From Acidobacteriota bacterium (GTDB taxonomy: Bacteria; Acidobacteriota; Blastocatellia; Pyrinomonadales; Pyrinomonadaceae): DNA of 64,000 nucleotides. Position numbers and translations under genes: made by a program. The first letter of the stretch is position 1; every line of letters starts with the position of its first letter. The stretch covers positions 2,998-66,997 of the forward strand of contig JANOBZ010000181.1 of the NCBI GenBank assembly GCA_031411895.1. The letters run 5' to 3'. The notes under the pieces are model-generated. The model had not been told where the DNA came from. It saw nothing but the letters and a program-made list of their open reading frames with translations, and did no database searches. Shown here one piece after another: positions 768 through 60,107 of this stretch.

Positions 768-820
768 GTGAAATGTGAAAAGTGAGAAGTGAAATTCGTG
801 TTTCACTTCTCACTTTTTAA
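768..820. repeat. Tandem-unit hairpin element (GTGAAAN heptamer family)
   Basis: GTGAAAT GTGAAAA GTGAGAA GTGAAAT - loop - TTTCAC TTCTCAC TTTTT between convergent larB and 847..1896. Confidence 0.85.
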
Positions 821-846
821 ATGAAAACCTTTTTATATTTTTCTGC

Positions 847-1896
847 TTACGACTGAACGGCTTGCGGAAGCATTCCTTTAATTTCCCTGACGATTTTCTG
901 CACATCGTCATCGTCTTCGAGCGCGATCATAAAAAAGTCGTAGCTGGTTTTGAAACAAACCATTCCGTTGCCGAAAAACCAAACGCCTTCCAGCAAAGGG
1001 TTGCCGCCGAGCAGCCAATCGAGCGGCGCACCCGTAATCGTTTTCGGATTCAAAACATTCGTCATCAAAACCGCGCCGGACGCGAACGCGAACGAACCGA
1101 GCAGCGGTGCGCCGATACGTTTTACGATGTCGCGTTCAAACTGCACACGCTCGGCTTCCGCCTTTGAAAGTTCGCCTTTGTTGATGAGTTCTTCCTGATC
1201 TTTTAAGTATTTATTAAATTGTTCGCCGAGTTTTTTGACCGACCAGGCAGGAATCGCGGAATTGAAAAGCCAGTGCGAACTCAAGCCGGAAAAAACAACG
1301 CCGAGACCTGCGCCGACCGCCATCGAAACTCCGGTCGTCGCGGCTTGGACGGGATTTTCCGTCAGCCATCCGCTCGTTTTTTGCAGAGTCTTGTAAGCCG
1401 AATCAAAAGTGCGCGTCCAGCTTGCGCCGAAATTGAATGCTTTTGAAGCCGTCTGCGCGGTTTTGTTGACGGTCTTTTTGGTTTCTTCAAAAACTTCGCC
1501 CGCTCGTTCGCCGGCAAAATTTATTATTTCGCCCGCTTTCTTGCCGAAATCGCGGATCGTTTTTTCGGTTTCGACGGCGGTTTTGCCGAACGCGTCGGCG
1601 GCTTTTTCGCCCGCGTCTTCCGCCGCATCACGAACCGGAGCAGACGCTTCATAAACTTTTTTCGCCGCGCCTTCCGCCGTTTTATATGTTTCTTCGGCGA
1701 CCTTAAAGGCTTGTTTGCCGACTTCGGATTTTTCGGCTTCGTGTTTGATTCTGCCTGCGCCTTCCTTCGCCGTATCCATCACGACCTTCGCGCCTTCCTC
1801 GAGCTTGTCTTTTAAGCCGAGCTGTTTGTCTATTTCCTCAAACTTCTCTTTCGCGTCGCGCTGCCATTTTTCAAAGCGTTCTTTATAATCTGCCAT
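847..1896 (-). CDS. Hypothetical protein: N-terminal amphipathic K/E/A-rich helical repeats, C-terminal hydrophobic segments
   Basis: ORF 847..2010; start moved to ATG 1896 (MADYKERFEKW) preceded by AAGGAA; a TATAAT-like box on the minus strand at 1999-2004 lies inside the longer ORF. Confidence 0.6.
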   Translation of the reverse strand: MADYKERFEKWQRDAKEKFEEIDKQLGLKDKLEEGAKVVMDTAKEGAGRIKHEAEKSEVGKQAFKVAEETYKTAEGAAKKVYEASAPVRDAAEDAGEKAADAFGKTAVETEKTIRDFGKKAGEIINFAGERAGEVFEETKKTVNKTAQTASKAFNFGASWTRTFDSAYKTLQKTSGWLTENPVQAATTGVSMAVGAGLGVVFSGLSSHWLFNSAIPAWSVKKLGEQFNKYLKDQEELINKGELSKAEAERVQFERDIVKRIGAPLLGSFAFASGAVLMTNVLNPKTITGAPLDWLLGGNPLLEGVWFFGNGMVCFKTSYDFFMIALEDDDDVQKIVREIKGMLPQAVQS

Positions 1897-2055
1897 TTTC
1901 TTAAATTCCTTTTCGTAAAAAAACTTTTGCCGTAGATACGTTTTCCTAAAAACTTTTGTTCGCTTTTGATGCTTTTTTGCATCGAAGTTATGTCTTGCAT
2001 TATAACGCAAACTTTGTTTTTGAAATCAAATTATTTATAGTAATCTTTCATATTT

Positions 2056-2259
2056 ATGCCATTAGTAAAATGTCCGACTTGCGGAAAACAAGCTGAATAC
2101 ACGGGAAACGAATTTCGCCCGTTTTGCTCGGAAAGATGTAAATTGCTCGATTTCGGGGCGTGGGCTGACGAAGAATTTGCTCTGCCGTCGCAGACCGAAA
2201 CGCTTTCCGAAGAAGATATAGACAAGATCGAAAAAGCCCTGAACGAAAAGGAAAATTAA
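2056..2259 (+). CDS. yacG: DNA gyrase inhibitor YacG (zinc finger)
   Basis: CPTCGK...[21 protein letters not shown] matches the YacG zinc-finger signature. Confidence 0.8.
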
Positions 2260-2262
2260 CCT

Positions 2263-5234: not shown

Positions 5235-5244
5235 AATATTTTTT

Positions 5245-5317
5245 GCCACGAACAAACACGAAAGTACACGAAAAATCTATTATTTCCTTTCGTGAATTTT
5301 CGTGTTTGTTCGTGGCT
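5245..5317. repeat. Tandem-unit hairpin element (AGCC-CACGAA family)
   Basis: GCCACGAAcaaaCACGAAagtaCACGAA - loop - TTCGTGaattTTCGTGtttgTTCGTGGCT; immediately upstream of def start. Confidence 0.9.
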
Positions 5318-5323
5318 AAATTC

Positions 5324-8476: not shown

Positions 8477-8542
8477 AGCCGCGGATTTCGCGGATTTTTA
8501 ATTTATTGATTTAATCCGCGTTATCTGCGTTTATCCGCGGCT
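8477..8542. repeat. Tandem-unit hairpin element (AGCC-CGCGGAT family)
   Basis: AGCCGCGGATTTCGCGGAT - loop - ATCCGCGTTATCTGCGTTTATCCGCGGCT; overlaps the stop of CDS 8541..9500. Confidence 0.9.
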
Positions 8543-10476: not shown

Positions 10477-10485
10477 AAGATTTTT

Positions 10486-10556
10486 GCCACGAATTGCACG
10501 AATTACACGAATGTTTTTTTTGAATTTTATTCGTGTAATTCGTGCAATTCGTGGCT
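10486..10556. repeat. Tandem-unit hairpin element (AGCC-CACGAAT family)
   Basis: GCCACGAATTGCACGAATTACACGAAT - loop - ATTCGTGTAATTCGTGCAATTCGTGGCT; contains stop and last 9 codons of CDS 10527..11999. Confidence 0.9.
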
Positions 10557-11999
10557 AATAAATTTTTCGGCTAACTGCACCGTTTCGTTGACGTTCAAAG
10601 TTCCGTTCGTAATTTGCGCCGAATTGACGATAAAAACTCCGTCGAGCGAAGTTTTTACTTCGTGCAGATTCGCCGAATAATTTAATGTCGGAATCGGGAA
10701 AACCTGCCGGACGCGCGAGATTTTGAATTCCAAAACATCCGCGCGCAAAAAATGCGCGTACATTTTTTCGAGCGCCGCCGTGAAATTTTCTTCGATCTCG
10801 GCGTCCGTTTTGTCGAACAGTTCATCGTCGGGCGCGACGTATTTCGGCAGATAAACGAGCGCGTTGCCGCCGAACTCCTTTTTATCAACGAGCGCCGACA
10901 TCTCGATAATTCCCGTAAACGGCGTTTCGTCCGTGATGTTCGTGACGTAAAAATCCGACAAAGACTTTTTCATCAGAACCGACGCGCAGACAATGCCCTG
11001 ATATTTTATATTTTCTAATTTCGCTTTTTCTTCGGCAGATAATTGCGGGCAAATCTTTGCGGCGATTGTTGACGGGCAAGTTAAAATTACTTTATCGAAT
11101 TGGTCATTCGATTTCCGATTCGGGATTTCGGATTTCGGATTTCGTTGGTCAATTTCAGATTTCAGATTTGAAATTTGAAATTGATTTTGTAATTTATGAT
11201 CTGTAATTTGTAATTCAAATTCCTTTGCGTCTTCGCGTCTTTGCGACTTTGCGGGAAATATCTCTATTTTTTCGTCAATCGTTTCGATTCTTTCGACGCG
11301 CGAATTAAGTCTAATCTCAACACCTTTCGCTCTTAAGTGTTCGCCGAATCTTTCCAAAACTCGTGCGTAGCCGCCGCGCACGTAGCCGAACATTTCTTTC
11401 TTTAATCCCGAATTTCGCGCCGCGTACATTCTTTGGATCGTCGCCCAGATAAACGCGGCGCTCGTTTCGCGGTAGGCTTCGCCCAATTTGGCTTTCAAAA
11501 GCGGTCGCCACATTTTTTCAAACGTCCGTTTGCCCGAAAACTTTGTTAACCAGTCTTCGACCGAAATCTTTTCTAACGCTTTCCAGTCTTTAACGCGCGC
11601 AGCGTAAAAGATCGTGCCGCCGAGCCGGAATTTTGAAATTAAATCCAATGGCGGAAATTTCAAAAATTCGAGCGTGTTCGACATCGAAACGAGCTTGCCG
11701 TCGGTGTAAAATCCGGTTTTCGTTTCGACCCATTCAAATTCTTCGCCGAGACCAATTTCTTCGACGATTTTACGCGTAAACGAATCCGAAAGCAGCGTCA
11801 CGTGATAATGTTTGTCCCACGTAATGTCGCCGATCTGCCACGCGCTCGCAAGCCCGCCGATTTCATTTGCGGATTCAAAAACCGTCACCTGATTGCCCGC
11901 TTCGGTTAGCCGCAAAGCGAGCGTCAAACCGAGAAAACCCGAACCGACAATCGCGATTTTGGATTTTGGATTTTGGATTTTGGATTTTTCTGAATTCAT
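10527..11999 (-). CDS. FAD/NAD(P)-binding oxidoreductase (amine oxidase-like) with repeat-derived N-terminal extension, about 50-aa internal insert and C-terminal tail
   Basis: IAIVGSGFLGLTLA...FES dinucleotide motif; segments NPKSKIQNPKSKI, ...SNLKSEIDQRNPKSEIPNRKS... and ...SHELHELHE are encoded by tandem-repeat arrays. Confidence 0.8.
   Translation of the reverse strand: MNSEKSKIQNPKSKIAIVGSGFLGLTLALRLTEAGNQVTVFESANEIGGLASAWQIGDITWDKHYHVTLLSDSFTRKIVEEIGLGEEFEWVETKTGFYTDGKLVSMSNTLEFLKFPPLDLISKFRLGGTIFYAARVKDWKALEKISVEDWLTKFSGKRTFEKMWRPLLKAKLGEAYRETSAAFIWATIQRMYAARNSGLKKEMFGYVRGGYARVLERFGEHLRAKGVEIRLNSRVERIETIDEKIEIFPAKSQRREDAKEFELQITDHKLQNQFQISNLKSEIDQRNPKSEIPNRKSNDQFDKVILTCPSTIAAKICPQLSAEEKAKLENIKYQGIVCASVLMKKSLSDFYVTNITDETPFTGIIEMSALVDKKEFGGNALVYLPKYVAPDDELFDKTDAEIEENFTAALEKMYAHFLRADVLEFKISRVRQVFPIPTLNYSANLHEVKTSLDGVFIVNSAQITNGTLNVNETVQLAEKFISHELHELHE
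11107..11256. repeat. Concatenated single-arm tandem arrays inside a CDS
   Basis: (GATTTCG)n, (CAGATTT)2, (GAAATTT)2, (TGTAATT)3, (GCGTCTT/GCGACTT)n in series; translated in frame in CDS 10527..11999. Confidence 0.85.
11955..11989. repeat. (GGATTTT)4-5 heptamer array encoding the N-terminus of CDS 10527..11999
   Basis: GATTTTGGATTTTGGATTTTGGATTTTT read directly; gives SKIQNPKSKI. Confidence 0.9.
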
Positions 12000-12987: not shown

Positions 12988-12996
12988 AAGATTTTT

Positions 12997-13070
12997 GCCC
13001 CGAACAAACACGAAAGAACACGAAAATTCTATTAAATTTATTTCGTGTCTTTTCGTGTTTTTTCGTGGCT
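12997..13070. repeat. Tandem-unit hairpin element (CACGAA family)
   Basis: GCCCCGAAcaaaCACGAAagaaCACGAA - loop - TTCGTGtcttTTCGTGttttTTCGTGGCT. Confidence 0.9.
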
Positions 13071-13337
13071 AATTCCTGTTTTCCATTCTCTATATTTTTC
13101 GCGCAGACATTCGAAACAAGGTCGAAATCCGGCGGCGATTGCGATTGATTCATCGGCGAAAAAGACGCGCTGCTTGGCATAATGACCTTTTGCTAGCCAG
13201 CGCGCCGCGCCTTTGCAGTCTAATGTGCCGTAAATCTTGTCTTTGAGATGTCCGCCCAGAGTGCCTTTCTCGGCGCTTTCGTAAAACTTGCCGTCTGTGC
13301 TGAGAAGTTTGTAAGTTTTATCGTTCGAATCGGTCAT
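13038..13337 (-). CDS. Ada-like metal-binding domain protein
   Basis: FYESAEKGTLGGH..K.YG...C..A.....GHYAKQRVFF..E..A...G.RPCFEC resembles the Ada Zn-binding N-terminal domain; last 11 codons and the stop lie inside a hairpin repeat. Confidence 0.55.
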   Translation of the reverse strand: MTDSNDKTYKLLSTDGKFYESAEKGTLGGHLKDKIYGTLDCKGAARWLAKGHYAKQRVFFADESIAIAAGFRPCFECLREKYREWKTGISHEKTRKDTK

Positions 13338-13515
13338 TTACCTCAAATCCAGCGTCGTTTTGCGATTTTTTAATCGAAAGATATCTTCTCGAAAGTAATA
13401 AATCTCTTTTCGAAAGAAACGCCTTTGCTAAATGTTTTAAAGCCTTTTCTAAAGTCTTAACAAAGAGTTAATTCAAACAACTTTTTCTTAAAATTATTTA
13501 AGAAACTGAATAAAA

Positions 13516-13694: not shown

Positions 13695-13745
13695 TCAAAT
13701 CTTCTGTTTCAAGTCTTTAAACGGCGTCTAAGAAAAACTTTAAAG

Positions 13746-13822: not shown

Positions 13823-13828
13823 TTTAAT

Positions 13829-14839: not shown

Positions 14840-14849
14840 AAAGATTTTT

Positions 14850-14917
14850 GCCACGAATAACACGAATAACACGAATTATTTTTACTTCTATTTGTGTTAT
14901 TCGTGTTATTCGTGGCT
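14850..14917. repeat. Tandem-unit hairpin element (AGCC-CACGAAT family)
   Basis: GCCACGAATAACACGAATAACACGAAT - loop - TTTGTGTTATTCGTGTTATTCGTGGCT. Confidence 0.9.
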
Positions 14918-14927
14918 AATTTTTGTT

Positions 14928-16157: not shown

Positions 16158-16167
16158 AATTTTATAA

Positions 16168-16243
16168 ACGGTAAATGGTGAATGGTAAATGGTAAATGGT
16201 TATACAAAGACATCAACCGTTTACCATTCACCATTTACCATTT
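16168..16243. repeat. Tandem-unit hairpin element (GGTAAAT heptamer family)
   Basis: ACGGTAAATGGTGAATGGTAAATGGTAAATGG - loop - CCGTTTACCATTCACCATTTACCATTT; contains the stop of CDS 16235..17953. Confidence 0.9.
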
Positions 16244-17953
16244 AGAATTTTTTTTATCAATATCAATCTGTGGTTGCAGATTCTCTGTGGATAATGAAGT
16301 TTCAATCGCTTCGGATTTCCCGAAAACGCGCGATTTTGAAAGTTTTGAGAGTAGCTTTAAGTGCCCGAAAATCGTCCTTGCAGTTTTCATTTTCGAAAAT
16401 CCGAACAGACGGACTTCGAGCACCGCCGGGTATTCGACGATCTTTCCGCCCTTCAGATCGAGCCGCCCGAGCATTTCCGCGACGCCTAAGAAACCCTTTT
16501 CCCGAATCGGCAAGTCAACGACGGATGCGCGGCGGTAAACGCGAAAACAGCTCGTATAAGTCGCGAGTTTTGCCCGCAGCGCGCGGCGGTAAAGCCACGA
16601 CGCGCCTTTTGATAAAAACAAGCGCCATTCGGGAACATTGCGCACGCCGCCTTCGCGATGATACGGCGAAGCCGTCACCAGATCCACGTCGCCGGTCAAA
16701 AGCGGCAGCATTTTAACAAGCTCGTGCGGGTCGTACGTGCAGTCGCAGTCCATCGAGCAGACGATTTCCGTGTCCGCCGCGCGAAGCCCGGTCATAATTC
16801 CGGCGGCAACGCCCTGATTCGTTTCGTGACGAACGATTCGCACGTTTTCCCGTCCGCCGAAAAGCTCGTTCAGTTTTTCGAGCGTCGTGTCTTTCGAACA
16901 ATCGTCAACAAAAATAAAATTCGCGCGGAAACCGTTTTCCGAGAGGTTCGTCTCGACGCTTCGGAGGGTGTTTGCCAGGTAAGGCAGCGCCGCTTCTTCG
17001 TTGTAACACGGAATGACGACCGACACGGGATTTTGGATTTTGGATTTTGGATTTTGGATTTGCGGAGTCGAATTTTCCTTTTGCAATTCGTGATTCGCAA
17101 TTCGTAATTCGTCTTTTAGCCCGAGAAATTCCGCTGCGTCGCAGAAATCGTATTTCTGGATGTTTTCCTTGAGAATCCATTCCATTTTGTCGAGCTTGCG
17201 GTAATGACGAATGCGGTTGTAGTGCGAGGCGGCGTTGATGCGCGGCTGTTCGGGGTCGAGTTCCCAGACGTGAAAATAAAAAACGAACGGCTCGCTTTCT
17301 CGTTCGTGCCAATCGCGCACCGCGCGGCGCATCAATGTGTATGGAATCTGACGAAAGTAATTGCCGCCCGAGATCGGAAGAAGCCCGACGCCGAAATTCC
17401 GCGTCGAATACGGAAATTCCCAGACGGCTTTCCCGTTCGTATGAACCTGATGCGCGAAACGCTTGTTTTTATCGTCTTTTCTGGTCGGCAGAAACGACGC
17501 GTCGTAAACAAATCCTTCTTCCGCCAAAACGTCGAAAATCCACGAATCTTTTTCGTAATTGAGTTTTTCGGCGGCGCGGTAACCGATGATTTTCTGACCC
17601 GACGCATCTTCCAATATCCGATTCGTTTTGCGCAAATCTTCGCGAAATTCTTCGTTTGTCAGGTTTTTCAAACTGCGGTGATAAAAACCGCGCGACGCTA
17701 GTTCGTGTCCGCGCGCGGCGATCTCGCGGACAAGTTTCGGATTCTGTTCGGCAATCCAGCCGAGCACGAAAAACGTCGCTTTCGTGTCGAATTCGTCGAG
17801 CAGATCGAGAGTTTTCAATGTGTTCTGTTCGTAACGCGGCTCGAAATTCTCCCAATTTCTCTGCTGAATCAGATTTTCGAACGCGCCGACGTGAAAATAG
17901 TCCTCGACCAGCACGGTCAACAGATGTTTTTTGTTTTGAAGGGGTGAATTCAT
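16235..17953 (-). CDS. Fusion of DUF3473-type polysaccharide deacetylase (PEP-CTERM-locus type) and family 2 glycosyltransferase, joined by repeat-derived linker
   Basis: N-terminal LLTVLVEDYFHVGAF...ATFFVLGWIAE...GHELASRGFYH; C-terminal VSVVIPCYNEE...FVDDCSKD GT2 motifs; linker ELRIANHELQKENSTPQIQNPKSKIQNP encoded by two tandem-repeat arrays. Confidence 0.85.
   Translation of the reverse strand: MNSPLQNKKHLLTVLVEDYFHVGAFENLIQQRNWENFEPRYEQNTLKTLDLLDEFDTKATFFVLGWIAEQNPKLVREIAARGHELASRGFYHRSLKNLTNEEFREDLRKTNRILEDASGQKIIGYRAAEKLNYEKDSWIFDVLAEEGFVYDASFLPTRKDDKNKRFAHQVHTNGKAVWEFPYSTRNFGVGLLPISGGNYFRQIPYTLMRRAVRDWHERESEPFVFYFHVWELDPEQPRINAASHYNRIRHYRKLDKMEWILKENIQKYDFCDAAEFLGLKDELRIANHELQKENSTPQIQNPKSKIQNPVSVVIPCYNEEAALPYLANTLRSVETNLSENGFRANFIFVDDCSKDTTLEKLNELFGGRENVRIVRHETNQGVAAGIMTGLRAADTEIVCSMDCDCTYDPHELVKMLPLLTGDVDLVTASPYHREGGVRNVPEWRLFLSKGASWLYRRALRAKLATYTSCFRVYRRASVVDLPIREKGFLGVAEMLGRLDLKGGKIVEYPAVLEVRLFGFSKMKTARTIFGHLKLLSKLSKSRVFGKSEAIETSLSTENLQPQIDIDKKNSKW
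17027..17112. repeat. Two single-arm arrays, (GGATTTT)5 and AATTCGT units, forming the inter-domain linker of CDS 16235..17953
   Basis: GGGATTTTGGATTTTGGATTTTGGATTTTGGATTTG ... GCAATTCGTGATTCGCAATTCGTAATTCGTC. Confidence 0.9.
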
Positions 17954-21010: not shown

Positions 21011-21017
21011 GATTTTC

Positions 21018-21090
21018 AGCCACGAACAAACACGAAACCACACGAAAAAATTTATTGTAATTTCGTGAAATTTTGTGTTTGTTCGTGGCT
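21018..21090. repeat. Tandem-unit hairpin element (AGCC-CACGAA family) between glpX and ppsA
   Basis: AGCCACGAAcaaaCACGAAaccaCACGAA - loop - TTCGTGaaatTTTGTGtttgTTCGTGGCT. Confidence 0.9.
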
Positions 21091-21101
21091 AAACTATAAA
21101 T

Positions 21102-23510: not shown

Positions 23511-23573
23511 GACCACGGATTACACAGATTATTTTTACAGCTTTAAAGTCCGTGTAATCCGTGTAATCTGTTG
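23511..23573. repeat. Tandem-unit hairpin element (CACGGATTA family)
   Basis: GACCACGGATTACACAGATTA - loop - TCCGTGTAATCCGTGTAATCTGTTG after ppsA stop. Confidence 0.85.
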
Positions 23574-29199: not shown

Positions 29200-29262
29200 T
29201 TCTAGAAAGCCTTTCGAACTTCATTTTCCAGTTCACAAACCGTATTCTTATTCTTTAAAGAC

Positions 29263-29298
29263 AAAAAAGGCAAAAGTTACTCAAACTTTTGCCTTTTT
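29263..29298 (-). terminator. Terminator for M28 peptidase gene, flanked by (TTTTTAC)3 units at 29298-29318
   Basis: GGCAAAAGT / ACTTTTGCC stem with A run (T run on the minus strand). Confidence 0.7.
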
Positions 29299-29319
29299 AC
29301 TTTTTACTTTTTACTTAAA

Positions 29320-31174: not shown

Positions 31175-31221
31175 CTTGGCGACTTTGCGGGAGAAAAGAT
31201 AGTTCCCGCAAAGTCGCCAAG
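31175..31221. repeat. Hairpin element (GCAAAGTCGCC family)
   Basis: CTTGGCGACTTTGCGGGA - loop - TCCCGCAAAGTCGCCAAG, perfect 18-nt arms. Confidence 0.9.
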
Positions 31222-32202: not shown

Positions 32203-32227
32203 TCTCAATACAACGAACATTCGAAAT

Positions 32228-32296
32228 AAGTGAAAAGTGACAGGTGATAAGTAAGGCGTTCGAATCTATCACTTTTCACCTGTCACTTTTTACCTG
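32228..32296. repeat. Tandem-unit hairpin element (GTGAnAA heptamer family)
   Basis: AAGTGAA AAGTGAC AGGTGAT AAGTAAG - loop - TATCACT TTTCACC TGTCACT TTTTACC; unit order differs between the arms. Confidence 0.85.
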
Positions 32297-32357
32297 TTCC
32301 GAATCGCGCGTCGGCTCTCAAATCATTTTTAACGCGCCAATTTTGTATGATTGAGAT

Positions 32358-41007: not shown

Positions 41008-41043
41008 CCGAAATCCGAAATCTGAAATCCTAAATCGAATGAT
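41008..41043. repeat. (GAAATCC-type) heptamer array ending in ATGATG
   Basis: CCGAAATCCGAAATCTGAAATCCTAAATCGAATGATG upstream of the ABC permease gene. Confidence 0.8.
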
Positions 41044-43778: not shown

Positions 43779-43925
43779 TTTTATTTTCTTTTCAATTCGG
43801 CGACATCTACGTATTATTAAAAAATGCGGCGCGAGATAAATCTGAAAGCCGCGAATAATTGATTGTTTTTAAAGATAATCGGTGATAGATTTACCGTCAA
43901 AGTTAAACCACAAGGAAATAAAAAA

Positions 43926-44276: not shown

Positions 44277-44309
44277 ATAAAAAACGAGACGCGAATGACA
44301 AATTAAAAA

Positions 44310-44414
44310 AAATGGGACGCGGATTTGGCGGATTAAAAACGGATCAGGACGGATTTTATTTTTATGTTTATCCGTTGTAATTCGTCTTAAATCCATTAAA
44401 TCCGCGTCCCATTT
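44310..44414. repeat. Tandem-unit hairpin element (CGCGGATT / ACGGATT family)
   Basis: AATGGGACGCGGATTTGGCGGATTAAAAACGGATCAGGACGGATT ... AATCCATTAAATCCGCGTCCCATT. Confidence 0.85.
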
Positions 44415-44428
44415 TTATTTTCGCAACG

Positions 44429-44461
44429 AAAAGACGGCTCGAAATCTCGAACCGTCTTTTT
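44429..44461. terminator. Bidirectional terminator between convergent genes
   Basis: AAAAGACGG.TCGA / TCGA.CCGTCTTTTT with A and T runs on both sides. Confidence 0.65.
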
Positions 44462-44481
44462 GCCTTTTTACTTTTGCCTTT

Positions 44482-44841
44482 TTACTTTCTTTTCAAAAGT
44501 AAGCCCAAAATCAAGCCGATCGCCGCCGACACGACGATTGCCTGTGCCGGTTTCTGACGCGCGAATTCTTTGGCTTCTTCGATTAATTCCTTCGGCTCTT
44601 TGCTTGAAAGCTCCTTGAATTTATCGCTCGCCTGCGTCAATTTTTCGCTCGCGAAATCTTTCGCTTTGACCGCTGCGTCCTGAAATCTCTGCTGATAATC
44701 CTGTGCCTGCATTTTTACATCTCCTAAATATTCGTCGTTAAACGACTTATTGAAATCTTCTTCCTGCGCACTGACGGGAACGAGACTTTTCTGTTCCAAT
44801 TCCTGTTCCGCTTTTTTTACTTCCTGTTCAAATTCCGACAT
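44482..44841 (-). CDS. DUF883 (ElaB/YqjD-like) tail-anchored protein
   Basis: Start at ATG 44841 after GGAGAAAAAAATA; C-terminal KPAQAIVVSAAIGLILGLLLKRK anchor. Confidence 0.7.
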   Translation of the reverse strand: MSEFEQEVKKAEQELEQKSLVPVSAQEEDFNKSFNDEYLGDVKMQAQDYQQRFQDAAVKAKDFASEKLTQASDKFKELSSKEPKELIEEAKEFARQKPAQAIVVSAAIGLILGLLLKRK

Positions 44842-45050: not shown

Positions 45051-45686
45051 TTGGATAAATTTTTTGGAACAACAAATACGCGGATGCCGGGTGACGAGCG
45101 CCGCGAACAGCTTTGCCGGATAGCGATGCGCCTTTTCTCCGAGCGCGGTTTTCGCGGCACGACGACCAAAGAGATCGCGAACGCGGCGGGCGTTTCGGAA
45201 GCGGTTATCTTCAAACATTTCTCAAACAAGGACGAGCTTTACGCTTCGATTCTCGACAACAAGGCGTGCAGTCATCCGATGAGCGACCCATTTTCGGAAA
45301 TCGCCGACCGGATCGAACAAAAGGACGATTTCGGCGTGTTTTACGGAATGGCGCTCAACGCGCTCGATCATCACAAAGAGGATGCCGATTTTCTGCGTTT
45401 GATGCTTCATTCGGCGCTCGAAGGACATGAGCTGGCGCGGGTGTTTTTTGAAAATTTTATTACGTATATTTACGATTTTTTGGGCGGTTATATTCGCCAG
45501 CGGCAGGAAGACGGCGCGTTTCGCGATGTCGAGCCGCGCGTCGTGGTCAGAGCATTTATCGGAATGTTCGTTCACCATTCGCTGAACAATATTCTGTGGG
45601 ATAAAGAACAGAAATTATTAAAGATTTCGAACGAGGATGCGGCGCGCGAATTTGCGACGATCTTGCTTGACGGAATCAAAAAGTAA
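45051..45686 (+). CDS. TetR/AcrR family transcriptional regulator
   Basis: HTH region FSERGFRGTTTKEIANAAGVSEAVIFKHF; TTG 45051 sits 5 nt after AAGGAG (ATG 45084 is an alternative start). Confidence 0.8.
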   Translation: MDKFFGTTNTRMPGDERREQLCRIAMRLFSERGFRGTTTKEIANAAGVSEAVIFKHFSNKDELYASILDNKACSHPMSDPFSEIADRIEQKDDFGVFYGMALNALDHHKEDADFLRLMLHSALEGHELARVFFENFITYIYDFLGGYIRQRQEDGAFRDVEPRVVVRAFIGMFVHHSLNNILWDKEQKLLKISNEDAAREFATILLDGIKK

Positions 45687-45724
45687 AAAGGCGAAAGTAA
45701 AAAGTAAAAATTTATAAAAATTAT

Positions 45725-47062
45725 ATGCAGTCATTCAAGTTCATATTTTTTGCCGTAACCGCGATCGGACTGTCGCTGTTTCTGGCAGGGTGCGGCGGCT
45801 CGAAGGCGCAGGTCAACGTAAACGTTAACAGCGCGCAGAAACCGAATGTCGAGGTGACGAGCACGCAGGCGGTCGTCCGTCAGATTCCGACGTATTTCGA
45901 AGCGACCGGCAATCTGGCGAGCGACGCGCAGACGGACGTTGCGCCGACGGTCGGCGGAAAGATCGTCGAGGTTAATTTCGACGTCGGAAGCTATGTTAAT
46001 AAAGGCGACGTTCTGATCCGGCTCGACGCGCGCGACGCGCAAATCCGTTTAGAGCAGGCGCAGGCGCAGGTCGAACAGCAGCGCCGCGCGGTTCAACAGG
46101 CGGAAGCGGCGGTCGAACAGGCGATCGCCGCTTTGCGCCAAACGCAGGTTCGCTTAGGCATTACGGACGGCGAAACTTTTAATATCGCCGATTTTTCGCA
46201 GGTTAAAACGATTCGCGCACAGCTCGACTTAGCCGAAAGAGAACTCGCGCGGACAACGCGTTTGCTTGAAACGGGCGACGTTTCGCGGGCGATCTACGAC
46301 CAGCGAAAATCGCAGCGCGACGCGCTTTTAGGGCAACTCGACGAAGCGCGTTCGAACGCGGCGGTCGCGATTAAAGCGATCGATACGTCGCGCGCGGCGG
46401 TCAATACGGCGCGCGCGAACGTTTCACAGGCGCGCGCGGCGGTCGCAACCGTCGAAACGCAGGTTGATCAGGCGCGAAAAGCCATTACCGATACGATCGT
46501 TTACGCGCCGATCAGCGGTTATATCGCGGAAAGAAATTCGGATTTGGGCGAATATATTACGCCGAACACGCCTAATTCAAAGGTCGCGACGATCGTCCGC
46601 ACGGCGGTTCTGCGTTTGCGGATCGACGTTCCCGAACAATCGATCGGCAAAGTTTCGGTCGGTCAGGGCATCTCGGCGCAGGTTTCGGCTTATCCGGATC
46701 GCAATTTTGCGGGCACGATCGTCAGAATTCTGCCGAGTTTGAATACGACTTCGCGGACTTTGACGGTCGAAGCGGAAGTCGAAAACGTCAACGGATTGTT
46801 AAAGCCCGGACAGTTTGCGACCGTCCGCATCACGCAGTCGAATCCGGTTGCGGCGGTCATGGTTCCGACCTCGGCGGTGCGCACCGAAGGCGATATTCAC
46901 AAGGTTTTCGTCGTTAAGGACGGCGTTGCCAATGAACGGCTCGTGCAGCTCGGTTTTCTCGAAAACGATATGATCGAGGTCAAACAAGGCATTCAGGAAG
47001 GCGAAGTAGTTGCGACAAGCAATTTGGACAAATTAGGCGACGGAGTGATCGTCATTCAGTAA
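45725..47062 (+). CDS. Efflux RND transporter periplasmic adaptor (MFP)
   Basis: Lipoprotein-like LAGCGG, coiled-coil hairpin (Q/A/R-rich), I.AP.SG.I motif. Confidence 0.9.
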   Translation: MQSFKFIFFAVTAIGLSLFLAGCGGSKAQVNVNVNSAQKPNVEVTSTQAVVRQIPTYFEATGNLASDAQTDVAPTVGGKIVEVNFDVGSYVNKGDVLIRLDARDAQIRLEQAQAQVEQQRRAVQQAEAAVEQAIAALRQTQVRLGITDGETFNIADFSQVKTIRAQLDLAERELARTTRLLETGDVSRAIYDQRKSQRDALLGQLDEARSNAAVAIKAIDTSRAAVNTARANVSQARAAVATVETQVDQARKAITDTIVYAPISGYIAERNSDLGEYITPNTPNSKVATIVRTAVLRLRIDVPEQSIGKVSVGQGISAQVSAYPDRNFAGTIVRILPSLNTTSRTLTVEAEVENVNGLLKPGQFATVRITQSNPVAAVMVPTSAVRTEGDIHKVFVVKDGVANERLVQLGFLENDMIEVKQGIQEGEVVATSNLDKLGDGVIVIQ

Positions 47063-47065
47063 TTT

Positions 47066-47142
47066 TTCGGTTTTGGGTTTTCGGTTTTAGGTTTTTGATT
47101 TAACAAAAGCCAAAGACCAAAGCCCCAAAACCAAACCGAAGG
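47066..47142. repeat. Tandem-unit hairpin element (GGTTTTG heptamer family) between MFP and RND genes
   Basis: TTCGGTTTTGGGTTTTCGGTTTTAGGTTTTTG - loop - CCAAAGACCAAAGCCCCAAAACCAAACCGAAGG; ATG 47149 follows after 6 nt. Confidence 0.9.
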
Positions 47143-50430: not shown

Positions 50431-50435
50431 AGTTA

Positions 50436-50515
50436 TTCGATTTGGGATTTCGGAGTTCGGATTAAAATTCGAGCAAAGACAAATCCGCAATCCCAAATCG
50501 AAAATCCGAAATCGA
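50436..50515. repeat. Tandem-unit hairpin element (GATTTCG / CGAAATC family)
   Basis: TTCGATTTGGGATTTCGGAGTTCGGATT - loop - AATCCGCAATCCCAAATCGAAAATCCGAAATCGA, then ATGATG start of CDS 50516. Confidence 0.9.
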
Positions 50516-50938
50516 ATGATGGCTTTATCGGTAAAAATCGCGCTTCTGGCTTCGGGCTTATTTCTGCTTTCGGGAATGCTGACCGGCATCTGGAAATACG
50601 CACGGATTATGCAGTCTGCCGAACATCAAGCACCGGTTTATGTTGATATCGCGCATCGCGCGTCGTTCTTTTACAGTTTTGCGAGTTTGGTGATCGCCAA
50701 ATTGATCGAGTATTCGCCGTTCAGCAGTTTTCAGCAGATCGTGATTGTCGCCGTGCCAATTTTATATTTTATTTTAACGGTCGCGGGATATATCAGGGAA
50801 GGCTATTTGAACCGCACGGAAAATATGTTTACGGAAAGAAATTTCGTCACGACGTGGTTTATGTACGGTTTGATCGCGGGCGAGATCGGCGGATTTTTAT
50901 TGATTATGGGCGGTTTTATTTATACGCAGTTTTTATAG
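50516..50938 (+). CDS. Four-helix membrane protein, hypothetical
   Basis: ATGATG start is the last part of a repeat array; hydrophobic helices; between RND permease and TolC genes. Confidence 0.55.
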   Translation: MMALSVKIALLASGLFLLSGMLTGIWKYARIMQSAEHQAPVYVDIAHRASFFYSFASLVIAKLIEYSPFSSFQQIVIVAVPILYFILTVAGYIREGYLNRTENMFTERNFVTTWFMYGLIAGEIGGFLLIMGGFIYTQFL

Positions 50939-50943
50939 ACGGT

Positions 50944-51003
50944 CTTCGGTTTTGGGTATTCGGTTTTTGCAAAAACCGAATACCCAAAACCCAAAACCAA
51001 AAT
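50944..51003. repeat. Tandem-unit hairpin element (GGTTTTG family)
   Basis: CTTCGGTTTTGGGTATTCGGTTTTT GC AAAAACCGAATACCCAAAACCCAAAACC. Confidence 0.9.
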
Positions 51004-52857: not shown

Positions 52858-52874
52858 TCTTCCTTTAATTTGAA

Positions 52875-52945
52875 GCTGCGAAACAGCGCGAAACAACACA
52901 AAAAACCATTCTCAAATTTAGTGTCGTTTCGCGCTTTCGCGCGCT
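52875..52945. repeat. Tandem-unit hairpin element (GCGAAAC family) after TolC gene
   Basis: GCTGCGAAACAGCGCGAAACAACAC - loop - GTGTCGTTTCGCGCTTTCGCGCGC. Confidence 0.85.
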
Positions 52946-53095
52946 TTTGAATTAAATGATATTCAGCCGGCATTTTTTTTCTGTAAAACCCTTTACTTTT
53001 TCCGAAAATTTATTTGCAATTCACCGCAAATTCGTATTATGTTTGCGTCGTAGTTCTGCAGATTTTTAATCTACAACTTTAAAGGAGAGAAGGAA

Positions 53096-54224: not shown

Positions 54225-54236
54225 AAACAAATTTTA

Positions 54237-54306
54237 GCCACGAATGACGCGAATTGCACGAATAGCCGGAAAAAATAATTCGTGAGATTCGTGTCATTCG
54301 TGGCTG
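54237..54306. repeat. Tandem-unit hairpin element (AGCC-CACGAAT family) between divergent genes
   Basis: AGCCACGAATGACGCGAATTGCACGAAT - loop - ATTCGTGAGATTCGTGTCATTCGTGGCT. Confidence 0.9.
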
Positions 54307-55068: not shown

Positions 55069-55075
55069 TTTTTTT

Positions 55076-55205
55076 AGCCGCGGATCAACGCGGACCAGCG
55101 CGGATTAAAACTTAGCGTCTTTGCGGGAAATAATCACTTTTTTCCCGCAAAGACGCAAAGACGCTAAGAAAGAGTTAAAATACTAATCCGCGCTGGTCCG
55201 CGGCT
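55076..55205. repeat. Nested composite: CGCGGA-family hairpin with a GCAAAGACGC-family hairpin in its loop
   Basis: AGCCGCGGATCAACGCGGACCAGCGCGGATT ... [CTTAGCGTCTTTGCGGGAA ... TTCCCGCAAAGACGCAAAGACGCTAAG] ... AATCCGCGCTGGTCCGCGGCT. Confidence 0.9.
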
Positions 55206-56342: not shown

Positions 56343-56356
56343 GTTTTTTTTAGATT

Positions 56357-56427
56357 AGCCACGAATGGCACAAATAGCACGAATAAAGCTTTAGTTTTTA
56401 TTCGTGTTATTTGTGCCATTCGTGGCT
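56357..56427. repeat. Tandem-unit hairpin element (AGCC-CACGAAT family)
   Basis: AGCCACGAATGGCACAAATAGCACGAAT - loop - ATTCGTGTTATTTGTGCCATTCGTGGCT. Confidence 0.9.
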
Positions 56428-56544
56428 AATTCCTGTTTCTTCTTCGCGAAAAATTTTGTCACAAAATTCCCGCCGCCGGTGTTTTCATCACAGAACGCAC
56501 ATTCTGCGAAGAAATAATTTATAAACTTGGAGGGATTTTTTGTG

Positions 56545-57402: not shown

Positions 57403-57432
57403 ACCTCGGAAAATCGAGTTATAATAAGTAAA

Positions 57433-57474
57433 GTAAAAAGGCGCATCGTTTTATAAAACGATGCGCCTTTTTAC
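57433..57474. terminator. Bidirectional terminator / GTAAAAAG-family hairpin
   Basis: Perfect palindrome GTAAAAAGGCGCATCGTTTTA / TAAAACGATGCGCCTTTTTAC between convergent genes. Confidence 0.7.
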
Positions 57475-57490
57475 TTTGATAAATATTTGC

Positions 57491-58600
57491 TTACGAAGCG
57501 TTCAGCAGATTATTAATCATCATCAGCGAGTCGGCTGAAATTCCGCCTTTGTGAGCGCCGAGTTGGACGCCGATTTTTTCCGCTTTAACGATTTGCAGCA
57601 ATTGCGCGCGCTTGATTTTATAAATCAGAAGCTCCGAAACCGAGTTCATATTTTCGCGCGTAAAGCGTTTGGCTTTGCCGAGCGCGAATTTTTGCGAGTC
57701 CGCCGAAATTATCAGGTTATTCGATTTAACGAACTGGTAATTTTTCGCAGTAATGATGAATCCGACGACATATATGCTCTCTTCGATGTTCGTTTTATCG
57801 CCCCGGTAAAGGTAAAAAAGGCGGCTGTCTACTTTCTGCAAAAAGTTTGAGTTCGGAAAATCCAGATAAATGCTCGGCGTCGAAATATGACCGATCCGGT
57901 CGGTCGGGTCGTAGCCCGCGCGCAGACCGCCGAAACCGAGCGGCTGGTCGAAATCGTTCGCGCCGCCGACGTCCGCCCACATTTCCATCTGCGGCATCAC
58001 CTGCGGGCGCACCGGAACTTTCTTCCGGCTTTCCATTTCGCGAACAAAGGCGGCTTGCTTGGCGGCTTCCGCGTCTTTACGGCGCTGAATAGCGGCTTGT
58101 TCGGCGCGAAATTCCCACGACGGCTGTAAGTCCGTCCGGCTCCAAACGCCGCGTTTTTCCGCCTTCGCCTGCGATTCATTGTCTATATAAACGAGGCTTT
58201 CCGCCGGGTCCTGACCGCTTTGTTCGGGAATCGAATACCACGCCGCTCCGTCGCGCAGCATCTGCTGGCTGATGTCGACGCCTTTGATCAAAAGCTGTCC
58301 GGCGGTGCGGTCTTTCATCACGATGCGCGGCAGAAATTCGACCGTTTTACCGAGCACGAGTTTTTGCAGATGATCTTTGACGGTTTGATAAAGCGGCTGC
58401 GCGGGGTCGGGAATTTCGATATACTGCAAAACCACCGTGACCTTTCTGCCCGACATTTGAACGACGCAGGTTCGACCGTCGATCACTTCCGTGACCATTC
58501 CGGCGAATTTCCGCTGCGGGTAAGCGGAAATCGCGGTCAGAAAGAGAACGACGGCGATGAAAATGAAGGGCTTCAGATTTTCTTTAAAACTTTCTTTCAT
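57491..58600 (-). CDS. Secreted/anchored protein with staphylococcal-nuclease-like (OB-fold) N-terminal domain and unknown C-terminal domain
   Basis: G.V.EVIDG.T..V......V.V.L..I..P........K..L..LVLGKTV......KDR..R..G.L...G.D....ML..G.AW pattern; overlaps regulator stop by 1 nt. Confidence 0.6.
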   Translation of the reverse strand: MKESFKENLKPFIFIAVVLFLTAISAYPQRKFAGMVTEVIDGRTCVVQMSGRKVTVVLQYIEIPDPAQPLYQTVKDHLQKLVLGKTVEFLPRIVMKDRTAGQLLIKGVDISQQMLRDGAAWYSIPEQSGQDPAESLVYIDNESQAKAEKRGVWSRTDLQPSWEFRAEQAAIQRRKDAEAAKQAAFVREMESRKKVPVRPQVMPQMEMWADVGGANDFDQPLGFGGLRAGYDPTDRIGHISTPSIYLDFPNSNFLQKVDSRLFYLYRGDKTNIEESIYVVGFIITAKNYQFVKSNNLIISADSQKFALGKAKRFTRENMNSVSELLIYKIKRAQLLQIVKAEKIGVQLGAHKGGISADSLMMINNLLNAS

Positions 58601-59994
58601 TATCTTGTTTCCAAATCGTATTCGCGCAGGCGGCGGTAAAGCGTCGAAGGCGAAATGCCCAGAAGTTCGGCGGTTTTGCCGCGATGCCAGCCGGTTTTTT
58701 CGAGCGCGTGGATAATTTGCTGGCGCTCGACATCGCGCAGAGCGGTCGGCGACGAAGCGTTTTGAAACGAGCTGATCGCGGGTTCGCTCGGTTCGTTGTA
58801 ACTGACGGAAACGCTCGGCTCGGTCATTTTATAGACGACTTCGGGCGGCAGTTCCTTGATCGTGATGCGACCGTTATCGCACAAAAGCGCGGCGCGTTCG
58901 AGACAATTGCGAAGCTGGCGAACATTGCCCGACCAGTTGAACGAACAAAGCGCGTCGATCGCTTGCGGCGCGAGTTCGGGCGCGTTCGCACCGGCGAGCT
59001 TGTGCAGAATATGTTTGGCTAACGGCTCGATATCTTCGCGGCGTTCGCGAAGCGGCGGAATGTGAATCTCGAAGCTGTTGACGCGGTAAAGCAGATCGGC
59101 GCGGAAGATTCCGTCCGCAACGGCGCGTTTCGTGTTGCGATTCGTCGCGGCAATGAGCCGCACGTCAACCTCGACCTTTTTGACGCCGCCGACGCGGAAA
59201 AACGAACGCGTTTCAAGCGCGCGTAAAAGCTTCGACTGCAAATTCATCGGCATTTCCATGATCTCGTCGAGGAAAAGCGAACCGCTGTCGGCAATCTCGA
59301 ACAAGCCTAATTTTCGCCCGCGCGCGCCCGAAAACGCGCCCGCTTCGTGTCCAAAAAGTTCGGATTCGAGCAGATTATCCTGCAAAGCGGCGCAGTTTAA
59401 GTCAATAAACGTTTTATCGTGGCGGCGGCTCAAACGATGAATCGCCTGCGCGATCAGCTCTTTTCCCGTCCCGGATTCGCCGGTAATCAGCACCGACGTA
59501 TCGGAAACCGCGACGCGCTGGACGAGCCGCAAAACTTCTTTCATCTGCGACGATTCAGCGACGATTTCGGGCAATCCCTGTGTGGTGCGCTCGATCTGCG
59601 CGCGCAGGCGCTGATTATCGACCTTGAGTTTTTGTTTTTCAGCCGCCTGCTGGACGAGCACCGCGAGTTCCGTGATGCGGTAGGGTTTCGTCAAATAATC
59701 ATACGCGCCGAGCTTCATCGCCTCGATCGCTGATTCGACCGTCGCCTGTCCGGTCAGCATAATCACTTCGGGCGGATTCTGCGATTTGTCGCGCAGACGG
59801 CGCAGAAGTCCGAGACCGTCGAGGCGCGGCATATTTATGTCGCACAAAATGACATCGAAATCTTCGTGTTCAAGAGATTCCCAAGCCGCTTCGCCGTCCG
59901 AAGCCGTTTCGACCTCGTGCCCCTGACGGCTCAATTCCTTTTGCACGACAAGGCGCAAATTGCTTTCATCATCAACTACTAAAAGTTTTGCCAT
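58600..59994 (-). CDS. Sigma-54-dependent response regulator (NtrC family)
   Basis: Receiver LVVDDE...D..MP; AAA+ GESGTGKE, GAFSGA, ESELFGHE; C-terminal Fis-type HTH. Confidence 0.9.
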   Translation of the reverse strand: MAKLLVVDDESNLRLVVQKELSRQGHEVETASDGEAAWESLEHEDFDVILCDINMPRLDGLGLLRRLRDKSQNPPEVIMLTGQATVESAIEAMKLGAYDYLTKPYRITELAVLVQQAAEKQKLKVDNQRLRAQIERTTQGLPEIVAESSQMKEVLRLVQRVAVSDTSVLITGESGTGKELIAQAIHRLSRRHDKTFIDLNCAALQDNLLESELFGHEAGAFSGARGRKLGLFEIADSGSLFLDEIMEMPMNLQSKLLRALETRSFFRVGGVKKVEVDVRLIAATNRNTKRAVADGIFRADLLYRVNSFEIHIPPLRERREDIEPLAKHILHKLAGANAPELAPQAIDALCSFNWSGNVRQLRNCLERAALLCDNGRITIKELPPEVVYKMTEPSVSVSYNEPSEPAISSFQNASSPTALRDVERQQIIHALEKTGWHRGKTAELLGISPSTLYRRLREYDLETR

Positions 59995-60004
59995 AATTGT
60001 TTAA

Positions 60005-60107
60005 GTTTATTGAGTTTGTTGAGTTCTTTGAGTTCATAGAGTTGAAGAAGTTCATTTACTCTATGAACTCTACAAACTCAATAAACTCTATGAACTCAAA
60101 GAACTCT
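60005..60107. repeat. Tandem-unit hairpin element (GAGTT(T/C)nn family) between kinase and regulator genes
   Basis: GTTTATTGAGTTTGTTGAGTTCTTTGAGTTCATAGAGT - loop - ACTCTATGAACTCTACAAACTCAATAAACTCTATGAACTCAAAGAACTC. Confidence 0.9.

Follow-up and report, generated by a model that had tools for sequence, protein, structure and literature searches.

A segment of 64,000 nucleotides from a Pyrinomonadaceae member of the Acidobacteriota (contig JANOBZ010000181.1, positions 2,998 to 66,997), referred to below as the window, carries many hairpins in which an array of short tandem units is followed, after a loop, by the reverse-complement array. The feature is a variant of short tandemly repeated repetitive (STRR) sequences, heptamer arrays and intervening sequences (IVS), with a new lead to a partner gene family. 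The explanation that we prefer, with about even confidence, is that the hairpins are short non-coding palindromic insertion elements. They would be the members without an open reading frame (ORF) of an STRR/IVS-like class, the coding members of which carry a PF05635 gene. The evidence consists of a census of the window, a comparison of the same operon in close and distant relatives, a scan for one repeat family across phyla and an inspection of the flanks of PF05635 genes.

Census and placement of the hairpins in the window

The window is an ordinary bacterial chromosome segment (GC content about 0.50) with exopolysaccharide/XrtA-type genes, genes for phosphoenolpyruvate (PEP) synthase and GMP synthase, an RND efflux operon and a two-component system. 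When hairpins were searched without gaps (at least 16 bp, at least 80 % paired, loop of 70 nt or less), 22 were found, including 13 with periodic arms (periodicity of at least 0.6 at period 6-11). In 20 dinucleotide-preserving shuffles of the window, the corresponding means were 0.6 hairpins and 0.05 periodic hairpins. Ten elements were folded and gave energies of -25.7 to -56.2 kcal/mol (z = -4.4 to -14.3), a stability that no shuffle out of 200 attained. Stem lengths are roughly 17-37 bp. Tandem Repeats Finder (TRF) reported dozens of arrays with a period of 7-10, and an inverted-repeat finder reported arms of 28-53 nt. The feature is real and strongly non-random.

Once indel-containing elements and array-only loci are counted in, the total is about 29 loci. 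The first-pass annotation of this DNA had described at least 25 loci with one hairpin-of-tandem-units architecture in many sequence families, and both statements agree with the sequences found. Likewise, the CACGAA and CGCGGAT families have the outer ends (TT)AGCC...GGCT(AA) in common, as had been noted, and unit number is unequal between the arms at 8477, 32219 and 59997, of which the latter two had been noted as well. The features are listed below in window coordinates, with the strand where one applies. Compared loci or contigs are designated by L and a number, and window genes by g and a number (g9-g14).

768..822: GTGAAAN hairpin between the convergent genes 128-733 (+) and 847-2010 (-)
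5241..5320: CACGAA(C/A) hairpin with 10-nt units, 9 nt 5' of the def start codon (- strand); same family as the 12994 and 21015 elements
8477..8541: CGCGGAT hairpin between the - strand genes 8541-9500 and 7105-8433; unequal unit numbers in the arms
10483..10558: CACGAAT-NN hairpin with 9-nt units (27/27 bp, -45.6 kcal/mol); the start codon of 9502-10476 is 9 nt past the stem
11110..11253 (-): heptamer and octamer composite (GATTTCG, GATTTCA, ATTTGTA, CTTTGCGT), in frame in the flavin adenine dinucleotide (FAD) oxidoreductase gene (g9)
11955..11988 (-): GATTTTG x5 array; its translation is KSKIQNPKSK, an N-terminal peptide of g9
12994..13072: CACGAAA hairpin with 10-nt units, a dispersed copy of the 5241 family
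14847..14919: CACGAATAA hairpin where the aminotransferase gene (g12) meets the oxidoreductase gene (g11), the junction compared across relatives
16162..16247: GGTAAAT/GGTGAAT heptamer hairpin at the g13-g12 junction
17028..17112 (-): GGATTTT x5 and AATTCGT x4 arrays, linker between deacetylase and glycosyltransferase domains
21015..21093: CACGAA hairpin between glpX and the PEP synthase gene (+ strand)
23513..23573: CACGGATTA/CACAGATTA hairpin 3' of the PEP synthase gene
29257..29316: short AAAGGCAAAAG hairpin and ACTTTTT x4.6 array at the 3' end of 29320-31020 (-)
31175..31221: GCAAAG-type hairpin separating - strand genes (18/18 bp)
32219..32304: GTGAAAA/GTGACAG hairpin; arms differ in unit order
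41008..41036 (+): CCGAAAT x4 array without inverted partner, 5' of 41064-42644
41819..41850 (+): AATCCGA x4.6 array, linker between permease and substrate-binding domains of 41064-42644
44305..44419: CGGAT-type hairpin with 50-nt arms, overlapping the 5' end of 43869-44396 (-)
44456..44488: CTTTTTGC/CTTTTTAC array (TRF and sequence reading)
45678..45725 (+): AAAAAGT array filling the gap between a TetR-family gene and the RND adaptor gene
47064..47135: GGTTTTC/GGTTTTG hairpin separating the RND adaptor gene from the permease gene
50435..50517: GATTTCG/GGATTTC hairpin 3' of the RND permease gene
50941..50998: GGTTTTG hairpin, 14 nt 5' of the likely start of the outer-membrane efflux gene
52861..52959: GCGAAAC hairpin 3' of the outer-membrane efflux gene
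54236..54305: CACGAAT hairpin that separates divergent genes
55075..55205: outer CGCGGAT hairpin with ends TTAGCC..GGCTAA; its loop holds the nested hairpin of the next line
55111-55160: inner GCAAAGAC hairpin with ends TTAGCG..CGCTAA, nested in the loop of 55075..55205
56354..56430: CACGAAT/CACAAAT hairpin (33/34 bp, -56.2 kcal/mol)
59997..60107: GAGTTNNNN hairpin with 9-nt units between the histidine kinase and response regulator genes (- strand)

Period-7 arrays were called by TRF at 768, 11110, 11955, 16165, 17028, 41008, 41819, 47064, 50480 and 50972, whereas the period of the CACGAA family is 9-10. None of the hairpins was matched at the gathering threshold when the window was scanned with Rfam, and the sub-threshold matches were to generic long-hairpin (miRNA precursor) models only. 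A full-text literature search with the repeat sequence returned chance primer matches only. Sigma-54 promoters, DnaA boxes, Fur boxes and the tRNA T-arm were compared by eye with their consensus sequences and did not fit.

Elements had been said to fill nearly every intercistronic gap between same-strand genes. When every intergenic gap of the window was folded, this was confirmed at the level of roughly 13-14 of the 20 same-strand gaps of at least 30 nt (hand count). The geometry was measured on 39 unique oriented periodic hairpins of the window and its close relatives with a gene start no more than 45 nt downstream, 32 of which also have a same-strand upstream ORF. The stop codon lies a median of 4.5 nt before the stem, and the start codon follows the stem at a median of 13 nt (mode 9-11). 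The stop codon is inside the element in 8 of the 32 hairpins with genes on both sides. Start codons about 9-17 nt beyond the elements have an A-rich leader without a Shine-Dalgarno (SD) sequence, and GGAG-type sites are present at other genes of the window (e.g. 3904, 36629, 53096 and 55302). The spacer AAAAATCTTATG is not a general initiation context in the window, being found mainly after CACGAA-type elements.

Intrinsic terminators or attenuators would also appear as stable intergenic stems, and a few of the elements do lie between convergent genes (768, 29257). However, the sequence 3' of the stem is A-rich and has no T run, and the next operon gene follows at once. The elements are therefore not terminators, in agreement with the first reading of them as not simply terminators, and we regard this as the least probable of the explanations considered. 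Canonical terminators, in which a T run follows a GC stem, exist in other gaps of the same genome (26223, about 27190, about 36350 and 36403), and 57421-57486 is probably one of them and not a member of the class.

Most of the loci are intercistronic, but several arrays lie within coding sequence (11110-11253, 11955-11988, 17028-17112 and 41819-41850). The 11110-11253 array is a hypervariable surface insertion in the FAD oxidoreductase, and unrelated inserts of 10-80 amino acids are found at that site in relatives. The KSKIQNPKSK peptide from the 11955-11988 array is also found in L129, and the arrays 17028-17112 and 41819-41850 are inter-domain linkers of two fusion proteins. The hairpins are also relevant to annotation, as they give rise to spuriously extended ORFs, to protein tails encoded by the arms and to low-complexity inserts in frame.

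Insertion and turnover in relatives

A metagenome scan with the aminotransferase 14928-16157 identified the same operon in 35 close relatives (78-94 % amino acid identity in most) and 45 distant relatives (59-69 %). The spacing of these gene pairs in most of the distant relatives is that of overlapping or abutting genes (mostly -8 to +20 nt), whereas most of the close relatives have 60-120 nt and a hairpin at the corresponding junctions. Hairpin density per 10 kb was 4.4 in the window, 3.2 in the close relatives and 0.67 in the distant relatives, and for periodic hairpins it was 2.3, 1.6 and 0.13, respectively. Because the distant relatives have overlapping or abutting genes where the close relatives have a hairpin, the hairpins are lineage-specific insertions into tight operon junctions.

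At the g14-g13 junction, presence or absence of the element varies even among close relatives. The C-terminus of the WecB epimerase homologue at this junction is encoded by the arm and reads FSHELHE* in L149/L150 and FSRELHE* in L137 (* is the stop codon), and in L147 the ORF likewise continues through the arm units. Protein ends are therefore rewritten, and stop codons supplied, by the elements. Filled and empty junctions were too diverged for a target-site duplication to be delimited. The comparison of orthologous gaps in close relatives, a check suggested in the first-pass annotation, yielded presence and absence of elements as well as differences in unit word.

The unit word at the g12-g11 junction differs among the close relatives. 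It is CACGAAT in the window, L134 and L154, CACAAAG in L124, CACATAG in L125/126 and L128, CACAGAG and CGCAGAG in L135, L137, L147 and L149/150, CGCAAAG in L122, L127, L131 and L152, CGCGGAT in L123, CAGGGAT in L130, L132/133 and L145/146, and CACGAAA in L136 and L160. Most of these words are 1-2 purine transitions apart and follow the pattern C-R-C-R-R-A-K. Each word change was found in all units and in both arms, which independent mutation cannot produce, so that concerted evolution or replacement of the whole element is required. In the tree of the flanking gene, sister contigs have a common word and the same word also recurs in separate clades, a distribution which fits vertical descent together with replacement from a shared family pool. 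The unit word is homogenised over units and arms and is quickly replaced between close relatives. The dozen sequence families first recognised are therefore many words indeed, but they are not independent of each other, as related words interchange at one orthologous junction.

The free change of the word at a fixed site also bears on whether a DNA- or RNA-binding regulator recognises the elements as arrayed sites, each repeat taking up one protein unit. The regular spacing of 7-10 nt would suit such arrays, the tandem and inverted layout recalls operator arrays of the Fur type, and binding of S1, Csp or CsrA was suggested for heptamer repeats (MacGregor 2015, PMC4679880). However, a dozen different words occur within 64 kb, close relatives exchange the word without losing the site, and the downstream genes have no common function. 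We consider regulator binding very improbable as the explanation.

Replacement of elements was observed in two forms. Elements are nested in the loops of other elements (55111-55160 inside 55075-55205 in the window, and also in L126 and L147). In addition, the dispersed copies at 5241, 12994 and 21015 have their arms and outer flanks in common, and 5241 and 12994 additionally agree in a portion of the loop and in the flanking sequence as far as the start codon. The alignment of dispersed copies comprises five rows, two of them reverse-complemented, and has a mean column identity of 80 %. The nesting and the dispersed copies are replacement caught in the act. Slippage had been proposed for the gain and loss of units, and the unit-number polymorphism between the near-identical contigs L212/L214, L223/L225 and L235/L236 is direct evidence of slippage within the arms.

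If pairing in the sense transcript were under selection, G.U mismatches in the stems should exceed A.C mismatches. In sense orientation, 18 G.U and 19 A.C mismatches were counted in the window and its relatives, a set of 37 transition mismatches in which the test is low in power but in which a 3:1 bias would still have shown. The elements of other phyla have 18 of each. The signature of RNA-level selection was thus found neither in the window and its relatives nor in the other phyla. Because there is no excess of G.U over A.C, strand-symmetric homogenisation at the DNA level is favoured over selection at the RNA level. Template switching at quasi-palindromes is an established mutational mechanism, and switching from arm to arm would keep the two arms alike.

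These counts weigh against an explanation that we regard as possible but doubtful, namely that the hairpins are RNA elements selected by the host. They might protect upstream cistrons from 3'-exonucleases, serve as RNase III processing sites that set the ratio of an operon's products, or allow initiation without an SD sequence, with the stem standing in the place of the SD helix or insulating an A-rich leader. Several observations agree with such a role. The same junction keeps a hairpin in most close relatives although its sequence is free, and an ordinary GC-rich hairpin stands at the same place in L147 and L152. Moreover, the stems are very stable, the distance of 9-17 nt from stem end to SD-less start codon is regular, and a translational role was proposed for similarly placed heptamer repeats (MacGregor 2015, PMC4679880). 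On the other hand, the operon of the distant relatives works with overlapping genes and without a hairpin, and elements also occur between convergent and divergent genes and within coding loops. The same position in the junction would also be left by purifying selection acting on random insertions.

Spread across phyla and association with PF05635 genes

The CACGAA family was searched in one genome per species with the pattern GCCACGAA-N3-4-CACGAA-N3-4-CACGAA. At least 149 matches in at least 120 loci were obtained, while about 4 are expected by chance (uniform base composition assumed). At least 54 of the 120 loci listed have an inverted partner no more than 160 nt away (strict pattern). The matches belong to at least eight phyla and include Bacteroidota (Flavobacterium, Chitinophagaceae and Alistipes), Acidobacteriota (Blastocatellia, Pyrinomonadaceae, Chloracidobacterium, Vicinamibacterales and Terriglobia), Chloroflexota (Herpetosiphon, Anaerolineae and Caldilineaceae), Planctomycetota, Gemmatimonadota, Nitrospirota, Desulfobacterota, several Pseudomonadota and others. 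Among the matches listed, those of Blastocatellia and Pyrinomonadaceae have the flanks nearest to the window's (TTTTAGCC ... GGCAAAAATCTT-ATG). With the same CACGAA hairpin present in many phyla, the design is not specific to this genome.

The lead to a partner gene came from the g13-g12 junction of L125/L126, which is orthologous to window 16162-16247. There, a small ORF adjoins a hairpin with CGTGAAT/CGTAAAT arms. Its product matched PF05635, the '23S rRNA intervening-sequence protein' (a four-helix bundle), and gave a weaker bAvd-like match. In L125 this copy has an in-frame TAA in the middle of the gene (3061-3066; ...GRKSNK*FLNFL...) and may be decaying. A single-sequence phmmer search detected one further PF05635 copy in 200 loci.

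The flanks of 18 PF05635 loci were then read by eye (L125, L071/L201/L238, L211, L221, L223, L233, L235, L239, L240, L156 and eight plasmid loci). Tandem-unit arrays adjoin the PF05635 ORF in all 18, and in most of them an inverted pair encloses it on both sides. In L071/L201/L238, GTTGGCAG lies 5' of the ORF and CTGCCAAC 3' of it. The flanks are GGCAGAA and TTCTGCC in L211-L220 (Anaerolineales), of GGCAG type in L221 and L235/L236, and of CGTGAAT/CGTAAAT type in L223-L232 and L240. L233/L234 and L239 use the latter word family too, with flanking arrays that are direct and not inverted, and in L233 the 3' end of the ORF still forms a hairpin with the downstream array. L156 has a hairpin of GACAG type only downstream of the ORF. 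The plasmid copies have inverted arms in Anabaena, N. punctiforme, Calothrix, Riemerella and Azospirillum and direct arrays in Gemmatirosa and Pseudanabaena, and the copy of Nostoc PCC 7120 has unrelated words on its two flanks.

An automatic detector applied to 10 PF05635 loci found period-7 arrays on both sides in 7; as controls, 14 of 269 ORFs of the hairpin-rich lineage and 3 of 575 ORFs of the distant relatives gave the same result. The word tracks the protein subfamily. Proteins like that of L125 are accompanied by CGTGAAT-type words in five genomic contexts, and proteins like that of L071 by GGCAG-type words in four contexts in Acidobacteriota and Chloroflexota. At loci with annotated neighbours, the PF05635 genes (X) are co-oriented with the operon genes around them, as in sufA-X-sufB, cas6-X-cas4, X-sdhA and between two peptidase genes. 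On the cyanobacterial plasmids L241 and L248 and the Riemerella plasmid L245, PF05635 genes with heptamer arms were seen within CRISPR-associated operons (cas6-X-cas4 and X-cas4) and between sufA and sufB, each time in the orientation of the host genes. Among plasmids, the family is concentrated in the Nostocales, the classical home of STRR repeats.

The statement that no mobilising gene lies in the window therefore needs a distinction: none was found there, but a protein-coding counterpart, PF05635 between or beside arms of the same kind, exists elsewhere. A similar arrangement was reported for the 23S rRNA IVS of Coxiella, where tandem GACAGAT heptamers stand at the RNase III site upstream of the same ORF (PMC4990558).

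The spread and the association also bear on the view that the hairpins are a mutational by-product without mobility, partner or function, in which heptamer microsatellites are born by slippage, copied in inverted orientation by template switching and kept alike by quasi-palindrome correction. The array-only loci (41008, 45678, 11955, 17028 and 41819), the very long one-sided arrays of L132/L133, the polymorphic unit number of near-identical contigs and the strand-symmetric mismatch types are what it would predict, and heptamers are over-represented among bacterial simple sequence repeats (PMC4692102). It does not account for the same word with TTAGCC/GGCTAA ends at unrelated loci of so many phyla, far above chance expectation, for loops and flanks common to dispersed copies, for words that co-vary with PF05635 subfamilies across phyla, or for nested elements with complete ends of their own. 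We therefore consider it rather unlikely.

Mobilisation by a REP-associated tyrosine transposase (RAYT; an IS200/IS605-like Y1 transposase) encoded elsewhere in the genome is a further candidate mechanism, under which the hairpins would be repetitive extragenic palindromes (REP) or REP-based composites (BIME, REPIN). The high density of intergenic palindromes would suit it, palindrome loops are known insertion targets, and a Y1_Tnp gene occurs in the PF05635-carrying acidobacterial contig L234. However, a different, GC-rich palindrome, GGAGCGCGGACGGCTCGTCCGCC, stands on either side of that gene in the classical RAYT-REP layout, and L234 is poor in tandem-unit hairpins. RAYT was rejected as the partner because the L234 transposase gene has this REP of its own. 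Broadly similar palindromes at window 13515-13695 and 13740-13827 are distinct from the tandem-unit hairpins, which lack a GTAG-type 5' end, have TTAGCC...GGCTAA or family-specific ends, and use many words per genome instead of one master sequence. The reading has little probability in our view. The earlier statement that the window has no RAYT/TnpA-REP-like gene or other transposase is correct for what was found in the 64 kb, and an integrase is absent as well.

According to the preferred explanation, that of ORF-less insertion elements, each arm would be an STRR-type array of 7-10-nt units and the two arrays would form an inverted pair. The window hairpins would be the ORF-less counterparts of the PF05635 cassettes, and the class members borne on rRNA would be the classical intervening sequences. 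In this lineage, the elements have colonised the stop-start gaps of operon genes and a few tolerant coding loops or linkers. They would be transcribed in the polycistronic mRNA and fold into their 17-37 bp stems there, holding the upstream stop and the downstream start region adjacent and so preserving the coupling of the overlapping genes of relatives that lack the element. An insertion would be tolerated or nearly neutral because the hairpin keeps stop and start region together. By analogy with the intervening sequences of rRNA, the stems would be substrates of RNase III. The arms would be homogenised at the DNA level through slippage of units, arm-to-arm template switching, and replacement or nesting.

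Several points weigh against this explanation, the low power of the mismatch test among them. No PF05635 gene is present in the 64-kb window, and in roughly 316 kb of window and close relatives there is about one such gene (L125/L126) to 55 periodic hairpins. The 9-10-nt units and TTAGCC ends of the CACGAA family, the dominant one, were found around no PF05635 gene examined, and no target-site duplication, transposase or other mechanism of spreading was identified. The forms with and without ORF may share only a substrate, the heptamer arrays, and PF05635 genes might home into such arrays rather than found them. Finally, the sites close to stop and start codons may simply be the only places where an insertion is not lethal.

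A more specific proposal, which we offer tentatively and as less probable than the class membership itself, is that PF05635 proteins, as homologues of bAvd, an accessory protein of diversity-generating retroelements (DGR), are the cognate partners of tandem-heptamer hairpins, with one word per protein lineage, in a horizontally transferred system. ORF-less hairpins and arrays, including STRRs, TAACTGA-type repeats and the window's own intercistronic hairpins, would be its miniature derivatives. Spread might then occur through an RNA intermediate excised by RNase III or through recombination at single-stranded hairpins.

Tandem heptamer repeats are abundant, common to distant phyla and found beside start codons, without known origin or function. 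The window adds a form with hairpins, which in one lineage of the Acidobacteriota has invaded housekeeping operons at their gene junctions. It also offers a natural experiment, as the same operon is available with elements, without them and with different words, which demonstrates insertion and then concerted turnover. Its analysis further adds a consistent physical link to a widespread family of unassigned function related to bAvd and the rRNA IVS. If the association is causal, the heptamer repeats have a candidate partner protein, and a long-standing question becomes testable.

Known systems and other sequences

STRR heptamers of cyanobacteria have been known since about 1990. The first-pass annotation named STRR and REP/BIME as the nearest analogues, which was judged reasonable, and held that no described class fits. 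The latter is true in part: the hairpin form was not found described, but related heptamer arrays directly 5' of SD-less start codons have been reported in Beggiatoaceae, Cyanobacteria and Bacteroidetes, with 'no mechanism evident' (TAACTGA; MacGregor 2015, PMC4679880). GGGAATC repeats were reported in Xanthomonas and Nostoc (Rehm 2015, PMC4692102). Like STRR and heptamer arrays, the window has tandem 7-nt units that are mostly intergenic, abundant and variable in number. Like the TAACTGA arrays, which end a few nt before SD-less starts, its elements use a word shared by distant phyla without a known vehicle. Unlike STRR-type arrays, which are described as direct (one inverted case in 170 BOGUAY sets, PMC4679880), the window arrays are accompanied by their reverse complement, many words coexist and the units of some families are 9-10 nt long. 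The words described before (CCCCAGT and others, TAACTGA and GGGAATC) are all absent from the window. S23 or a helix bundle is not mentioned in PMC4679880, and a literature search that did not cover subscription journals found no prior description of the hairpin-of-tandem-units form or of its association with PF05635.

In the Coxiella IVS, which is regarded as a selfish element and is cleaved by RNase III, the copy number of GACAGAT at the 5' end varies between strains (PMC4990558). As in the 23S rRNA IVS with an S23p/PF05635 ORF (Leptospira, Coxiella), an extended stem encloses the insert and is predicted in the transcript. Unlike them, the window elements are without ORF and stand in mRNA spacers, not in rRNA helices 25 or 45.

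REPs can stabilise upstream mRNA. The window elements resemble REP/BIME/REPIN in being intergenic imperfect palindromes, often between operon genes, and differ from them in the lack of the GTAG end, in arms made of non-palindromic tandem units and in the many words per genome. The occurrence of many ORF-less and few ORF-bearing copies with the same terminal architecture, dispersed and nested, is similar to that of MITEs, the miniature inverted-repeat transposable elements. In contrast to MITEs, the ORF product is a four-helix-bundle protein and not a transposase, and the ends are tandem arrays evolving in concert and not fixed terminal inverted repeats. No target-site duplication was seen at the filled and empty junctions, which are too diverged to delimit one. 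Integron attC sites were rejected, as the ends of the elements do not fit RYYYAAC ... GTTRRRY (by eye) and no integrase is in the window.

A second repeat class, palindromes with a GC-rich core, was observed at window 13515-13695 and 13740-13827 and at 8233-9300 of L234. In L147 the loop of a tandem-unit hairpin contains an inserted cluster of such GC-rich palindromes.

Tandem repeats of 18-33 nt and an (AGC)13 run occupy 35883-37273, in the coding regions 35726-36325 and 36629-37282. The low-complexity repetitive proteins of both regions had no Pfam match.

The def gene (4743-5237, - strand) contains an in-frame TAG at codon 9 (5211-5213; MALRKITE*PEEVL...), a position at which Def proteins presumably have Tyr. 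The gene may be a pseudogene, or the TAG may reflect a sequencing error or recoding.

A group I intron (Rfam RF00028, 101 bits, match at 35189-35449) was found in window 34871-35500 (+), apparently in a split tRNA gene with its 5' half near 34871-34906 and its 3' half near 35462-35500. No tRNA was called by ARAGORN at 34871-35500, even with trial spliced joins. Between the tRNA halves lies an ORF (34929-35291), the 3' end of which overlaps the intron match. It had no Pfam match at E <= 1e-8. Its product ends in ...CVLLCANCHREFHAG with an HNH-like motif and, judged by that motif, may be an intron-borne homing endonuclease.

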